DNA from: Centroscyllium fabricii
Taxonomy: Eukaryota
DNA: 64,000 nucleotides
Reading direction: 5' to 3'
Assembly: GCA_051313645.2 (NCBI GenBank)
Contig: JBNRSN020000031.1
Coordinates: 6,634,001 to 6,698,000, forward strand
Shown: positions 1-63,771 of the stretch, in pieces
How the letters are laid out: each line of letters begins with the position of its first letter
How positions within the stretch are numbered: the stretch's first letter is position 1
The notes under the pieces: model-generated
The model's input: the letters and a program-made list of their open reading frames with translations, nothing else
Told to the model about the DNA's origin: nothing
The model's database searches: none
Translations under genes and position numbers: made by a program

Positions 1-479
1 ACAGTCGTGAGTAGTACTTCTGAGAAAAGGGCTTGGGGAACAAGGTGTAAGGGTGCTAAAGTGGATGCCTTGCCATTGTAAATGTCCAGTTGAAATGTGT
101 TCTGTAAGGGTGCTAAAGTGAGTGCCTTGCCATTGTAAAGTGCTGATTGAAGTGTGTTCTTGGGAGTGTCTGTGAATTGAATGAATGCTGATTGATTTGT
201 TATATGACATTAACGCTGCTTTCTGTTTTTGTATCTAGTTGCTAGTTGCTTAACACTGTTTGTATTTAAACTCTATCTCCCATCCCTGTTATTAAAGTTT
301 GTAAATAGAAATCTTGTCTCAGATTCATCTCTCTTAAGGTAAAAGGGTTACATTTGGGTGGAGGTCACAGAGTTCTACACGTGGGGTACGTTAAGAACCT
401 ACGGGGTAATTGGTATTAACCTACCCCCCCCCATACTCAGAGAAAGAGAAGGGGGGGGCCAATCAGAAATAGGGCCACA
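1..479 (+). repeat. Upstream LTR, 3' portion (truncated by the window edge)
   Basis: 1-430 reads identical to 1625-2054; ends ...GGGCCACA, then TT and the PBS. Confidence 0.88.
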
Positions 480-481
480 TT

Positions 482-499
482 TGGGGGCTCGTCCGGGAT
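482..499 (+). promoter_or_regulatory. Primer-binding site complementary to the tRNA-Pro 3' end
   Basis: TGGGGGCTCGTCCGGGAT is the 18-nt tRNA-Pro PBS known from murine leukemia virus; it lies 2 nt (TT) after the LTR-terminal CA. Confidence 0.95.
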
Positions 500-613
500 A
501 CTGTGACTTCCAGTTTCATACACTAGTGGAGTGAACCCATTGTTGCCGAGAGAGAGATGGACGTGAGCACGGTTACTTTGTGGTGTAGTCATGAGGACAT
601 GACTAAGTTTGGT

Positions 614-623
614 AAGGGGGGAG
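614..623 (+). promoter_or_regulatory. Polypurine tract (plus-strand primer)
   Basis: AAGGGGGGAG directly abuts the TG start of the downstream LTR at 624. Confidence 0.85.
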
Positions 624-882
624 TGTAACCTGGGTCTGAAACCCAGAGTCAGGGAGAATCTCCCTAAAGGGTTAAAAGTCTAGGGATCCAGTGGTCTGAG
701 GTCAGGTGACCTCTTCGGTGCCAGTTTGTCTGGAAGTTCAGATCACATGGGGTGGTTGTCCAGGTGTGAGATTGAACACTGTTTCAGACAGGCTGGGCTG
801 CCATGGAAACCAGCACTCGGCTCCGGCCAGTCTGTGTGATTGCTTTGTGATAGGCTGGCTAAAAGTGGGGTGAGTTACTGGA

Positions 883-906
883 GGGTGGAGCCAGGACAGG
901 ATAAAA
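883..906 (+). promoter_or_regulatory. Putative LTR core promoter (GT/GC box plus TATA-like GATAAAA)
   Basis: GGGTGGAG at 883-890 and GATAAAA at 900-906, about 280 bp into the LTR. Motif-level evidence only. Confidence 0.35.
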
Positions 907-930
907 TGCTGGACACGCCTAGAGATTATT

Positions 931-1063
931 AAGATTGAGCTGGAGAGAAGATTGAGCTGGAGTTAAGATAGAGCGCAGGAGGAAGAGAGAAGATTGAGCT
1001 GGAGAGAAGATTGAGCTGGAGTTAAGATAGAGCGCAGGAGGAAGAGAGAAGATTGAGCAGGAG
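931..1063 (+). repeat. Purine-rich 59-bp tandem repeat (x2 plus partial) inside the LTR, built of AAGATTGAGCTGGAG subunits
   Basis: 931-989 is repeated at 990-1048, with a partial third copy after it. Confidence 0.85.
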
Positions 1064-1386
1064 GTTAGATTGAGAAGATCCGGGAAGAGAGAAGATAAAG
1101 AAGGACATCACGAAAAGAAGCCACGAGGACCGCGCTCGGAAGGAGGGAAAACCAGCAGCACGAGGCACGAAGCCCTGAGACTCTTGGAAGACGCTAAAGA
1201 CATTAGCTGACCAGGGGAAGTCAAGAAGGAAGTCCCTGTGCACCGGCTGGGAAGAAGGAAGACCATTCGGGCGGATCAGAACCGGTACGTAGTCCGGGAG
1301 GAGCCCAGAAGATTGAGTGAGGGAAGACTCACCATTCTGGCAGATCAGAGCGGTACCTAGTCCGTGGAGCCAGCAATGCGTCGACG

Positions 1387-1531
1387 AGGTCGCAGGAAGC
1401 AGAGGGTGGAGAGCGGTGTTCGACACCCACTGCTGGAAGTTGCTGGAAGCTTTCGTGTAGGTCGCAGGAAGCAGAGGGTGGAGAGCTGTGTTCGACGCCC
1501 ACTGCTGGAAGATTCTGGAAGCCTTTCGTGT
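1387..1531 (+). repeat. 72-bp direct repeat x2 inside the LTR
   Basis: AGGTCGCAGGAAGCAGAGGGTGGAGAGC... starts at 1387 and at 1459 with few mismatches. Confidence 0.9.
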
Positions 1532-1669
1532 GAAAGGACTGAGAGCCAGATCCAAGAGCCGTCGTTGTCTCCCTTGAGATGAGGAGACTGTAGTGTACGG
1601 TCCTCATTGTCAAGCCCTATTCGGACAGTCGTGAGTAGTACTTCTGAGAAAAGGGCTTGGGGAACAAGG

Positions 1670-1783
1670 TGTAAGGGTGCTAAAGTGGATGCCTTGCCAT
1701 TGTAAATGTCCAGTTGAAATGTGTTCTGTAAGGGTGCTAAAGTGAGTGCCTTGCCATTGTAAAGTGCTGATTGAAGTGTGTTC
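1670..1783 (+). repeat. 57-bp direct repeat x2 inside the LTR (same repeat at 46-159 in the upstream LTR)
   Basis: TGTAAGGGTGCTAAAGTG...TGCCTTGCCATTGTAAA...TTGAA.TGTGTTC at 1670 and 1727 (46 and 103). Confidence 0.85.
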
Positions 1784-1914
1784 TTGGGAGTGTCTGTGAA
1801 TTGAATGAATGCTGATTGATTTGTTATATGACATTAACGCTGCTTTCTGTTTTTGTATCTAGTTGCTAGTTGCTTAACACTGTTTGTATTTAAACTCTAT
1901 CTCCCATCCCTGTT

Positions 1915-1920
1915 ATTAAA
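1915..1920 (+). terminator. Putative LTR polyadenylation signal ATTAAA (also 291-296)
   Basis: ATTAAA variant about 180 bp before the LTR end, in a T-rich context where the R/U5 boundary is expected. Confidence 0.5.
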
Positions 1921-4900
1921 GTTTGTAAATAGAAATCTTGTCTCAGATTCATCTCTCTTAAGGTAAAAGGGTTACATTTGGGTGGAGGTCACAGAGTTCT
2001 ACACGTGGGGTACGTTAAGAACCTACGGGGTAATTGGTATTAACCTACCCCCCCATTCTCAGTAAAGGAGAGGGGGGGGGCCAATCGTAAAAAGGGTTAC
2101 ACACGTAATCACATGCTGAGTTATCATTGGCCCACTGGCATCTGTAAGGACTAATATTGTATTCACTTAACCACATGCTGAGTTATCATTGGCCGCAGGC
2201 GTCTGTAAGGACTACCTATTATATTCACGTAATCACATGCTGAGTTATCATTGGCCCACAGGCATCTGTATGGACCACCTATTATATTCACGTAATCACA
2301 TGCTGAGTTATCATTGGCCCACAGGCATCTGTAAGGACTACCTGTTATATTCAAGTAATCACTTGTTGAGTTATCATTGGCCCACAGGCATCTGGAAGGA
2401 CTTCCTATTATATTCACGTAATCACATGCTGAATTATCATTGGACCAAAGGCATCTGTAAGGGATACCTATTATATTCACGTAATCACATGCTGAGTTAT
2501 CGTTGGCCCACTGTCATCTGTAAGGACTACTATTGTATTCACTTAACCACATGCTGAGTTATCATTGGCCGCAGGCATCTGTAAGGACTACCCATTATAT
2601 TCACGTAATCACATGCTGAGTTATCATTGGCCCACAGGCATCTGTAAGGACTACCTATTATATTCACGTAATCACATGCTGAGTTATCATTGGCCCACAG
2701 GCATCTGTAAGGACTACCTATTATATTCACGTAATCACATGCTGAATAATCATTGGCCCACAGTCATCTGTAAGGACTGCCTATTATATTCAAGTAATCA
2801 CATGCTGAGTTATCATTGGCCCACAGGCATCTGTAAGGACTACCTATTATATTCACGTAATCACATGCTGAGATATCATTGGCCCACAGGCATCTGTAAG
2901 GGCTACCTATTATATTCACGTAATCACATGCTAAGTTATCATTGGCCCACAGGCATCTGTAAGGACTACCTATTATATTCACGTAATCACATGCTGAATT
3001 ATCATTGGCCCACAGGCATCTGTAAGGACTACCTATTATATTCACGTAATCACATGCTGAGTTATCATTGGCCCACAGGCATCTGTAAGGACTACCTATT
3101 ATATTCACGTAATCATATGCTCAGTTATCATTGGCCCACAGGCATCTGGAAGGACTACCTATTATATTCAGGTAATCTCATGCTGAATTATCATTGGACC
3201 AAAGGCAACTGTAAGGACTACTATTGTATTCACGTAATCTCATGCTGTGTTATCATTGGCCCACAGGTATCTCTAAGGACTACCTATTATATTTACATAA
3301 TCACATGCTGAGTTAACATTGGCCTACAGGCATCTGGAAGGTCTACCTATTATATTCACGTAATCACATGCTGAGTTATCATTGGCCCACAGACATCTGG
3401 ATGGACTACCTATTATATTCACGTAATCACATGCTGAATTAACATTGGACCAAAGGCATCTGTAAGGACTACCTATTATATTCACGTAATCACATGTTGA
3501 GTTATCATTGGCCCACAGGAATCTGTAAGGAGTACCTATTATATTCACGTAATCACAAGCTGAATTATCATTGCCCACAGGCATCTGTAAGGACAACCTA
3601 TTATATTCACGTAATCACATGCTGAGTTATCATTGGCCCACTGGCATCTGTAAGGACTAATATTGTATTCACTTAACCACATGCTGAGTTATCATTGGCC
3701 GCAGGCGTCTGTAAGGACTACCTATTATATTCACGTAATCACATGCTGAGTTATCATTGGCCCACAGGCATCTGTATGGACCACCTATTATATTCACGTA
3801 ATCACATGCTGAGTTATCATTGGCCCACAGGCATCTGTAAGGACTACCTGTTATATTCAAGTAATCACTTGTTGAGTTATCATTGGCCCACAGGCATCTG
3901 GAAGGACTTCCTATTATATTCACGTAATCACATGCTGAATTATCATTGGACCAAAGGCATCTGTAAGGAATACCTATTATATTCACGTAATCACATGCTG
4001 AGTTATCATTGGCCCACTGTCATCTGTAAGGACTACTATTGTATTCACTTAACCACATGCTGAGTTATCATTGGCCGCAGGCATCTGTAAGGACTACCCA
4101 TTATATTCACGTAATCACATGCTGAGTTATCACTGGCCCACAGTCATCTGTAAGGACTACTATTGTATTCACGTAATCAAATGCTGAGTTATCATTGGCC
4201 CACAGGCATCTGTAAGGACGTCCTATTATATTCACGTAATCACATGCTGAGTTATCATTGGCTCACAGGCATCTGTAAGGACTACCTGTTATATTCATGT
4301 AATCACATGCTGAGTTATCATTGGCCCACAGGCATTTGTAAGGACTACGTATTATATTCACGTATTCACATGTTGAGTTATTATTGTCCCACAGTCATTT
4401 GTAAGGACTACTTATTATATTCACGTAATCACATGCTGAGTTATCATTGGCCCACATGCATTTGTAAGGACTACCTATTATATTCACGTAATCACATGCT
4501 GAGATATCATTGGCCCACAGGCATCTGTAAGGACTATCTATTATATTCACGTAATCACATGCTAAGTTATCATTGGCCCACAGGCGTCTGTAAGGACTGC
4601 ATTTTATATTCACGTAATCACATGCTGTATTATCATTGGCCCACAGGCATGTGTAATGACTACCAATTATATTTACGTAATCACATGCTGAGATATCATT
4701 GGCCCGCAGGCATCTCTAAGGACTACCTATTATATTCCCGTAATATATGCAGAGTTATCATTGGCCCACAGGCACCTGTAAGGAATAACTATTATATTCA
4801 CCTAATCAAATGCTGAGTTATCATTGGCCCACAGGTATCTGTAAGGACAACCTATTATATTCAGGTAATCACATGCTGAATAATCATTGGCCTACAGGCA

Positions 4901-49919: not shown

Positions 49920-51125
49920 AGAACATAGAACATAGAACATACAGCACTGTACAGGCTCTTGGGCCCTCAATGTAGTGCCGCCCTTATTCCGTCTCTGATT
50001 TTTCCTGTCCCCCCTACTGTTCCTTCCCTTCCATGTACCTGTCTATCATCCTTTTAAAAGCACCCAGACTGTCCGCATCCACTATTTCAGATGGTAGCCT
50101 ATTCCATTCCCCGACCACTCTTTGTGTGAAGAACTTGCCCCTGCCATCCCGTCTGAATCTTCCTCCTTGAATCTTGTGCTCGTGTCCTCTTGTTGTCGTT
50201 CTTCCCGCCCGGGGAAACAGTCTTTGCACATTTACTCTGTCGATCCCCTTCATCATTTTATACATCTCTATCAGGTCCCCCCTCTTCCTTCTTCGTTCCA
50301 GGGAGAAGAGTCCCAGTTCCCTTAACCGTTCCTCGTATGACTTTCCCCCCATTCCCGGCAGCATCCTGGTGAATCTCCTCTGCACTCTTTCCAGTGCCTC
50401 CACATCCCTCCTGTAGTACGGTGCCCAGAACTGCTCACAGTACTCCACGTGTGGTCTCACCAGTGACCTGTACAACTGCAGCATGACCTCCCGGTTCTTA
50501 AACTCTATTCCCCTGTTGATGAAGGCCAATACACCATAGGCCTTTTTTACTGCTTTGTCCACTTGGGTGGCAGCCTTCAGTGATCTGTGTACATATAGTC
50601 CCAGATCCCTTTGCTCCTCTGCTTCACTCAGGATCCTGCCGTTGACCCTATATTCCCTCTTCCTATTTGCCCTGCCGAAGTGCATCACCTCGCATTTCCC
50701 CTTGTTGAACTCCATTTGCCATTCTTCAGCCCAGCTCTGCATCCTGTCTATATCCCTCTGAATCGTTCTACTCCCTTCCTCCTCATCCACTACTCCCCCA
50801 ATCTTTGTGTCATCCGCAAATTTGCTGACCCACCCCTCAGCCCCCTCCTCCAAGTCATTGATGAAGATTACAAACAGTAGTGGCCCCAACACCGACCCCT
50901 GTGGTACCCCGCTGGTGACCGGTCTCCAGCTCGAGTATTGGCCTTCTACCACTACCCTCTGCTTCCTCTGAGCCAGCCAGTTCTCAATCCATCCCACCAC
51001 TTTGCTGCTTACCCCGCAACTCCTTACTTTCTTCATGAGCCGACCGTGCGGGACCTTGTCGAACGCCTTGCTGAAGTCCATATATATGACATCAACCGCC
51101 TTTCCCTCGTCCACACTCTTGGTCT
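49920..51125 (-). mobile_element. 5'-truncated CR1-clade LINE (ORF2 RT C-terminus, 3' UTR, (GTTCTAT)n tail)
   Basis: RT motifs DFSKAFDKVPH, GVPQGSVLGPLLF and FADD; CR1-type C-terminus (LERVQRRFTRM, LFSLERRR.RGDLIE). The minus-strand 3' end reads GGGCCCAAGAGCCTGTACAGTGCTGTAT(GTTCTAT)3. The element splits a monomer at GAGTTAT|CATCGG. Confidence 0.96.
50014..51125 (-). pseudogene. CR1 ORF2 fragment (about 370 codons, reverse transcriptase; no endonuclease or RT N-terminus)
   Basis: Uninterrupted frame from TKSVDEGKAVDVIYMDFSKAFD to the stop at 50014-50016; part of track ORF 50014..51456. Confidence 0.92.
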
Positions 51126-62500: not shown

Positions 62501-63599
62501 ACAGGCATCTGTAAGGACTACCTATTATATCCACGTAATCACATGCTGAGTTATCATTGGCCCACTGGCATCTGTAAGGACCACCTAATATATTCACGTA
62601 ATCACATGCTGAGTTATCATTGGCCCACAGGCATCTGTATGGACCACCTATTATATTCACGTAATCACATGCTGAGTTATCATTGGCCCACAGTCATCTG
62701 TAAGGACTACCTATTATATTCACGTAATCACATGCTGAGCTTTCATTGGCCCACAGTCATCTGGAAGGACTACCTATTATATTCACGTAATCACATGCTG
62801 AATTATCATTGGACCAAAGGCATCTGTAAGGACTACTATTGTATTCACGTAATCACATGCTGAGATATAATTGGCCCATAGGCATCTGTAAGGACTACCT
62901 ATTATATTTACGTAAACACATGCTGAGTTATCATTGGCCCACAGGCTTCTGGAAGGACTACCTATTATATTTACGTAATCACATGCTGAGTTATCATTGG
63001 CCCACAGGCATCTGGAAGGACTACCTATTATATTCACGTAATCACATGCTGAATTATAATTGGACCAAAGGCATCTGTAAGGAATACCTATTATATTCAC
63101 GTAATCACATGTTGAGTTATCATTTGCCCACAGGCATCTGTACGGACTACCTATTATATTCACGTAATCACATGCTGAATTATCATTGCCCACAGGTATC
63201 TGTAAGGACTACCTATTATATTCACGTAATCACATGCTGAGTTATCATTGGCCCACAGGCATCTGTAAGGACTACTATTATATTCACGTAATCACATGCT
63301 TAGTTATCATTGGCCCACAGGCATCTGTAAGGACGACTATTGTATTCACGTAATCAAATGCTGAGTTATCATTGGCCACAGGTATCTGTATGGTCTACTA
63401 TTTTATTCACGTAATCACATGCTGAGTTATCATTGGCCCGCAGGCATCTGTAAGGACTACCTATTCTAATCACGTAATCACATGCTGAGTTATCATTGGC
63501 CCACAGGCATCTGTAAGGACTACCTATTATTTTCACGTAATCACATGCTGAATTATCATTGGACCACAGGCATTTGTAAGGACGACCTATTATATTCAC

Positions 63600-63771
63600 A
63601 AAGTCACACAACACCAGGTTTAAAGTCCAACGTTTTATTTTAAATCACAAGCCTTCGGAGCTTTTGCCCCTTCGTCAGGCAAAGAGAAACTGTTGGACTT
63701 TAAACCTGGTGTTGTGTGACTTTTTGCATTTGTTCACCCCAGTCCAACACCGGCACCTCCGCATTATGGGA
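63600..63771 (+). mobile_element. Penelope-like element remnant (inverted plus direct terminal-repeat fragments and 3' extension) with 11-bp TSD
   Basis: Perfect 32-bp inverted repeat at 63600-63631 / 63692-63723; TSD ATTATATTCAC at 63589-63599 and 63772-63782; hammerhead-like core in the inverted arm. Resembles Penelope-like terminal repeats recalled from shark genomes. Confidence 0.8.
63646..63680 (-). ncRNA. Degenerate minimal hammerhead ribozyme motif (Penelope type)
   Basis: The minus strand reads CTGACGA-A-GGGGC-AAAA-GCTCC-GAAG-GCTT-GTG: CUGAnGA core, 5-bp stem II, GAAG in place of GAAA, and no stem I 5' arm. Confidence 0.6.

Follow-up and report, generated by a model that had tools for sequence, protein, structure and literature searches.

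How can the two LTRs of a young retroelement be identical along hundreds of bases and then disagree abruptly where one of them meets the PBS? This question is raised by an element at the very beginning of a 64,000-nucleotide stretch of the Centroscyllium fabricii genome (contig JBNRSN020000031.1, positions 6,634,001 to 6,698,000 of the forward strand), which was analysed as a whole and is hereafter called the window. Standard reverse transcription yields identical LTRs, yet two RNAs are packaged and the strand transfers can be intermolecular, as described in two reports (PMC6088434, PMC6894440). The analysis below indicates that the disagreement most likely reflects recombination, whether as a single or as a sporadic event of an already known kind, and not a different replication route.

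The window opens inside the upstream, PBS-adjacent LTR, whose last third occupies 1–479 on the plus strand, as a direct repeat of 1625–2101. This segment corresponds to about positions 1002–1480 of the LTR as defined at 624–2101; the window thus contains 32% of the 5′ LTR (479 bases out of about 1480). A 2-base spacer (480–481, plus strand) separates the LTR end from the PBS for tRNA-Pro (482–499, plus strand), which agrees at 18/18 positions with the MLV PBS-Pro probe given in an earlier paper (PMC4587795). The entire interior (480–623, plus strand) consists of 144 bp of non-coding sequence and closes with a polypurine tract and 2-base spacer (614–623, plus strand), ten purines lying immediately 5′ of the TG at 624. 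The complete downstream LTR of 1478 bp (624–2101, plus strand) begins after this tract and has satellite DNA at its end; it bears a terminal inverted repeat of 7 bp, with 7/7 terminal bases complementary. The TG...CA termini are complete on the 3′ LTR, while the 5′ LTR terminates in CA and would start, at the left junction, about 1 kb before the window. In direct orientation, the LTR pair (1–479 versus 1625–2101) is 97.9% identical over 474 columns, and 624–1624, present as a single copy in the window, is without a comparison partner. No third LTR copy lies downstream of 2101 in the window, and with two LTRs the element would be about 3.1 kb long, its LTR being ten times the length of its interior. 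The anatomy given in the preliminary description of this locus, comprising the LTR pair, the PBS, the U5 ends and the rule that both ends derive from a single template, is correct.

The sole ATTAAA/AATAAA hexamer in the LTR, an ATTAAA at 291–296 and again at 1915–1920 (plus strand), is a probable polyadenylation signal and would place the R/U5 border near 315. Together with a TATA-like motif at 900, it suggests that U3 is short, that R measures about 1 kb and that U5 spans about 160 bp. Among the 12 scanned of the 51 listed stop-to-stop ORFs of the element, no Pfam family scored above the cut-off (one reached E 0.031). ARAGORN detected no tRNA genes in the element, and the search for known RNA families (Rfam), ribozymes and 5S sequence in the LTR returned just a chance lncRNA match (E 0.36). 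A box-B-like motif occurs at 1418 and 1490, and a strict box A is absent. Two internal duplications were also observed in the LTR: AG-rich 17/25-bp repeats that include a perfect 59-bp duplication (window 926–1105), and a 72-bp duplication with the box-B-like motif inside a CpG-rich stretch (window 1387–1531). The element is a young non-autonomous, non-coding LTR retroelement. It has the cis-acting signals that replication from a tRNA primer requires but no genes, and its packaging must therefore depend on proteins supplied in trans.

A PBS-Pro fails to tell an ERV from a Ty3/gypsy element, and an MLV-type junction is not diagnostic. The mobilizing partner may be an epsilon-like ERV or a Ty3/gypsy element; epsilon-like ERVs are reported in catshark in a recent preprint (bioRxiv 10.64898/2026.05.06.723177). 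With MLV and the class I ERVs the element shares the CA, the 2-base spacer and the 18-base PBS-Pro (PMC4587795), as well as the purine tract with a 2-base spacer before TG, but it is without gag, pol and env and its LTR measures 1478 bp. Direct LTRs, a PBS, a PPT and a short gene-less interior liken it to the broad group of TRIMs and other non-autonomous LTR elements, in which chimeras and tandems are known and for which the size classes are set at under 1 kb for TRIMs and over 4 kb for LARDs (PMC13570524). At about 3.1 kb it falls between these classes, from which it is further distinguished by its vertebrate host, its disproportionate LTR and the sharply bounded U5 mismatch. The Helenus, Ajax and Cassandra TRIMs are likewise non-autonomous, with short interiors, and occur in fishes and in tandem arrays; the text excerpted from their description, however, gives them tRNA- or 5S-derived LTR sequence and short LTRs, the longest named being 323 bp (PMC10886601). 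No tRNA- or 5S-derived sequence was found in the present element, and identity with these families was therefore rejected. DIRS and Ngaro elements have inverted or split terminal repeats, an interior complementary to the termini and neither PBS nor PPT. Here the repeats are direct, a PBS and a PPT are present and the interior is complementary to 310–376 rather than to the termini, so this identity was rejected as well.

The element is hosted by a 63-bp satellite array (2102–64000, no strand assigned) within which two other insertions lie. One is a 5′-truncated LINE (49920–51124, minus strand), which we take to be of the CR1 type; its RT frame is open over 369 codons, its tail is a short tandem array of 7-bp units, and it is a young insertion in the satellite. 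Among the named relatives of its protein, the best three from sharks and rays reach 64–70%, against 39–56% for birds and turtles, which makes a cartilaginous fish the probable host. Two matches that score higher or about as high, at 74% and 65% identity to the LINE protein, are deposited under Klebsiella pneumoniae and Proteus mirabilis on contigs of 1.6–1.7 kb and probably represent host contamination of those records. The other is a 170-bp insertion (63601–63770) with 48-bp inverted arms (63594–63641 and 63682–63729) and an 11-bp flanking direct repeat; presumably, it resembles short Penelope- or DIRS-related shark repeats.

Between the two LTRs, 1–430 and 1625–2054 align without a mismatch (0/430), and since only one-third of the upstream LTR lies inside the window, these 430 bp are a lower bound on the identical length. 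The remaining U5 end of the upstream LTR (433–479, plus strand) differs from 2055–2101 at ten of 47 positions (435, 441, 442, 445, 450, 465, 466, 470, 475 and 476). The left border of this diverged block is a C-run (424–432, plus strand) that forms the 5′ arm of a C/G hairpin and counts nine C against seven at 2048–2054, a difference that lies within a homopolymer of the assembled sequence. The identity, the ten differences and the C9/C7 step had all been noticed by eye, and alignment returned the same positions. For ten substitutions to fall within one 47-column block of 477 columns, the probability is 3.4e-11 when the block is fixed and at most 1.5e-8 for any block; in none of 200000 simulations was the span as short as observed. 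Divergence amounts to 21% in the block, as against a 95% upper bound of 0.7% in the identical 430 positions. The distance within the block is 0.25, with 6 transitions and 4 transversions, and one of the ten changes is at a CpG. The stretch 433–479 is the first to be copied once the tRNA primes. A 63-codon frame across the PBS (343–534, plus strand) is open in the 9-C version and closed in the 7-C version; no relatives of it were found, and it is probably due to chance.

The condition of the element bears on the origin of this block. The PBS matches at 18/18 positions, the PPT and the termini are intact, five CpGs are left in the 144-bp interior, and 5/5 CpGs in 1–430 are common to both LTRs. 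The observed/expected CpG ratio is 0.63 in the interior and 0.77 in 1031–1624, compared with 0.23–0.31 elsewhere in the LTR. Judged from these sequence features, the insertion is very young. A distance of 0.25 could not have built up since insertion, implying that the block comes from another lineage.

Which of the two ends belongs to the lineage can be asked of the LTR itself, since it contains an inner copy of the LTR-end/PBS junction (341–358, and 1965–1982 in the downstream LTR; plus strand), composed of the terminal 12-mer of the 3′ LTR and six further bases matching the spacer and the start of the PBS. The 12-mer (341–352 and 1965–1976) agrees with 2090–2101 at 12/12 positions, as was seen in 1/20000 Markov simulations, and the 6-base run after its CA has a p of 4e-4, while the next 14 bases resemble the PBS at 6/14 positions, which is at chance level (p = 0.12). 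A tandem duplication of the whole U5 end was rejected, as the likeness is confined to 12 bases. In its last 12 bases the inner copy shows no mismatch with the 3′ end and three with the PBS-adjacent end, siding with the former at 465, 466, 470, 475 and 476; the last 15 bases of the genome-facing U5 end (2055–2101, plus strand) differ from it by no substitution and one gap in an A-run. The left LTR end at 624 matches the 3′ end at 7/7 positions, versus 5/7 for the PBS-adjacent end, which still ends in ACA. Given that the left LTR end and the inner copy both match the 3′ type, the genome-facing end is probably ancestral in the lineage and the PBS-adjacent end a newcomer. The latter had been described as having lost its terminal match; this holds against the element's own left end, but the end keeps the CA and the spacer and is maybe the normal end of a sister family. 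The inner copy looks like a relic LTR-end/PBS junction, as though about 125 bp had at some time been added to U5, and suggests that U5 grew by capturing an older leader. The 3′-type end thus probably adjoined the PBS formerly, in the ancestry of the lineage. In the predicted fold the inner copy also pairs with 529–547 and would therefore be under a sequence constraint of its own.

This fold is a long RNA rod, in which a 5′ arm (310–376, plus strand) is predicted to pair with a 3′ arm in the interior (495–574) through 56 pairs (44 Watson-Crick and 12 G-U), placing the PBS at the tip. The fold of 305–580 has a z of -5.0, and 0/200 shuffles were equally stable; these values belong to a window picked after the fold had been seen, and 2/9 plus-strand control windows reach a z of about -3. 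The minus strand gives a z of -2.95, and the equivalent of the 3′ LTR with satellite gives -0.5. The core pairs of the rod have a probability of 1.0 in both 500- and 900-base contexts. U5 is complementary to the greater part of the 144-bp interior, which in its paired form may serve as a compact, minimal signal for priming and packaging in a vertebrate.

The diverged block forms the last two predicted hairpins 5′ of the PBS (427–456 and 457–476), and both end variants keep both. Six of the ten differences fall in loops, three swap a Watson-Crick pair for G-U and one breaks a pair. A single pair-breaking change compares with 3.4 expected at random (P(at most 1) = 0.07), which is a borderline result for hairpins that were predicted from the same two sequences; it lends mild support to the view that both ends are working variants. 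The PBS-adjacent end has the stronger predicted terminal hairpin (G-C for G-U), with a probability of 0.96–0.97 when the PBS is held open, and local folds of 75–106 nt, taken by themselves, lack significance for both ends, with z between -0.1 and -1.7. The strand bias, 6 wobble-type versus 1 (p = 0.06), is weak, because a G/T-rich plus strand favours G-U pairs.

Taken together, a recombinant origin of the PBS-adjacent end, whether during reverse transcription or after insertion, is likely, and among the three ideas put forward in the preliminary description a recombinant of two subfamilies fits best. The form that we favour, at a probability of about 0.45, is a U5 patch of ~50 bases acquired from a sister family during reverse transcription of two co-packaged RNAs. 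Minus-strand DNA normally halts at the PBS because the U5 of its own template has already been degraded. Through the 18-base PBS, which is common to all Pro-primed elements, the minus strand could switch to a second RNA with an intact U5, about 79% alike in the patch stretch, and copying would then run on to the C/G hairpin. Plus-strand strong-stop DNA would anneal over the PBS and the C-run. The 5′ LTR alone would then carry a heteroduplex of 47 bp, of which host replication or repair would fix the foreign strand. The genome-facing end would be the lineage's own, as its two independent matches suggest. In a variant of this scheme, plus-strand DNA would be transferred between two cDNAs.

If the minus strand switched at the PBS, the block would be expected to lie where it does, with the border and the polarity that are seen. 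The sharp change from 0/430 to 10/47, exactly adjacent to the PBS and ending at a homopolymer hairpin, counts for a patch written during reverse transcription, as do its polarity, the two ends that look like working variants and the youth of the insertion. With a donor differing at 21%, 95% of breakpoints would be at most 13 bp away from the outermost difference, which puts them in the C-run or next to it. On the other hand, the route requires a heteroduplex with ten mismatches to integrate and then to be fixed as the foreign strand, and the same data fit recombination after insertion, the flanking satellite being recombination-prone.

There are precedents for such a patch. Mikkelsen et al. 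reportedly described in 1998 the same route, in which the PBS-adjacent U5 came from another RNA than the U5 of the 3′ LTR, in engineered PBS-modified MLV vectors; compared with these, the present element is natural, its PBS is intact and the patch spans merely about 50 bases. For HIV-1, Joseph et al. 2022 (PMC9278108) report unlike LTRs in 26/88 proviruses, with intermolecular plus-strand transfer. Those asymmetries are mostly 3′ LTR deletions, whereas the element has a patch, and the assay misses the last 69 bp of the 3′ U5, the very stretch at issue here (PMC9278108). Template switching and chimeras are also described as common among non-autonomous LTR elements in a broader survey (PMC13570524). 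Exact-pattern scans for the donor or other copies, with a shared LTR motif and with the end plus PBS junction in both end types, gave 0 matches in a set of contigs without animal genomes. Two junction-spanning chance ORFs used as probes found no relatives, and a further junction probe returned three weak matches (E 3.8e-5 to 8.2e-4), of which the two located stretches (residues 34–57 and 9–47) fell short of the junction.

The strongest competitor of the reverse-transcription patch, close to it though less likely, is recombination after insertion, in which two subfamilies differing mainly in the last 47 bp exchanged LTR sequence through gene conversion or unequal crossover, with shared satellite flanks helping. 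A crossover would have joined the left part and the interior of one subfamily to the right end of the other; alternatively, the PBS-adjacent end was converted. Either event predicts the same block pattern, and the satellite does duplicate as large near-identical units. Neighbouring monomers are 89.7% alike, with 1/292 pairs identical, and an offset scan revealed higher-order duplications whose near-identical copies are, for instance, 1.5, 3.3, 12.7, 14.0 and 17.8 kb apart; 7/30 sampled 1-kb satellite blocks have a copy of at least 99.4% at offsets of 3.3 to 17.8 kb. Directly beyond the LTR begins a stretch of 525 bp that is found again 1506 bp further on with 2 mismatches, and the LTR/satellite junction falls at the point where TATATT generally stands before the monomer (in 498 of some 550 cases). 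It is these recent large duplications, one of them starting exactly at the LTR junction, that keep this explanation in contention. Inter-element unequal recombination is, moreover, said to be frequent for non-autonomous LTR elements (PMC13570524). Recombination after insertion offers no reason why the PBS-adjacent 47 bases should be affected, unless an earlier swap of the same stretch created the subfamily, and a crossover would imply a parent family in which the right end was at odds with both the left end and the inner copy. Gene conversion is further disfavoured in that short tracts sharing 79% identity are converted inefficiently.

A more radical explanation makes the asymmetry heritable. 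The family would keep a U5 end for priming and folding beside the PBS, retained in every cycle through minus-strand run-through, and obtain its integration end from elsewhere each time, either from the strong-stop DNA of a co-packaged helper or by priming and realigning from the inner copy at 341–352. The inner copy could indeed template 5/10 differences, but for the other five neither strand of the window offers a local template, the best match elsewhere being 14/18. The stronger predicted terminal hairpin of the PBS-adjacent end is in favour of such a division of labour, as are the overlapping priming and integration functions of U5 ends that one study describes (PMC3185550). However, the inner copy shows a 3′-type end directly before a PBS start, so this junction is probably ancestral, and a 3′-type end that once stood beside the PBS speaks against a built-in asymmetry. 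Symmetric progeny would, in addition, be expected about half the time and would take over, and the asymmetry is seen at one locus only. We therefore consider heritable asymmetry improbable. In the open literature we found no description of family-wide U5 asymmetry or of the element itself; the family may be catalogued in Repbase or Dfam.

We attach a similarly low probability to a tandem element with at least three LTRs, in which the upstream copy would be internal and passed on separately from the outer LTRs, its body homogenised by template switching or conversion. The window does begin inside the upstream LTR, and tandems are common (97 copies in 38/115 sugar-beet families; zebrafish LTR-11_DR arrays; PMC13570524, PMC10886601). 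The preliminary description had proposed that such an LTR decayed once freed from integrase selection; this does not agree with 21% divergence beside 0/430, with an adjacent PBS at 18/18, or with just one of ten changes at a CpG and one of ten breaking a predicted pair. Relaxed selection alone cannot produce 21% in 47 bp against less than 0.7% in the next 430, and homogenisation between units would be expected to continue through U5 into the shared PBS and interior. Had the tandem arisen by LTR-LTR crossover, its PBS-adjacent end would be identical to the end of the last LTR.

An assembly chimera, in which two loci or haplotypes were joined across the identical LTR body, would give the observed pattern, and a report on lemur pSIV describes LTRs from two loci joined by misassembly (PMC2651035). 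Yet more than 60 kb of satellite were resolved here, including 14-kb near-identical duplications, which points to long accurate reads able to span a 3-kb element, and two subfamilies would still be required; a chimera is thus very improbable. Base-calling error was rejected, as it cannot yield ten coherent substitutions. Least credible of all is neutral divergence between the LTRs of an old insertion, with conversion later making them alike again up to the C-run. Conversion between the two LTRs of one element is reported in plants, but a distance of 0.25 would also have hit the interior, where the PBS is 18/18, 5 CpGs survive in 144 bp and the rod is intact, and only one of the ten changes is at a CpG.

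The reverse-transcription patch is our preferred account, and if the PBS-adjacent end is a recombinant, the locus captures in nature, with unusual clarity, the modular passage of a U5 end from one co-packaged element to another, an exchange known mainly from laboratory retroviral vectors and HIV-1. It also warns that a very young insertion may be taken for an old one on the strength of its LTR-pair divergence, which here amounts to 2% and is concentrated entirely in a single block. If, instead, the asymmetry were family-wide, it would represent a new replication route in which every young copy is asymmetric, and would break the rule that new LTR pairs are identical.
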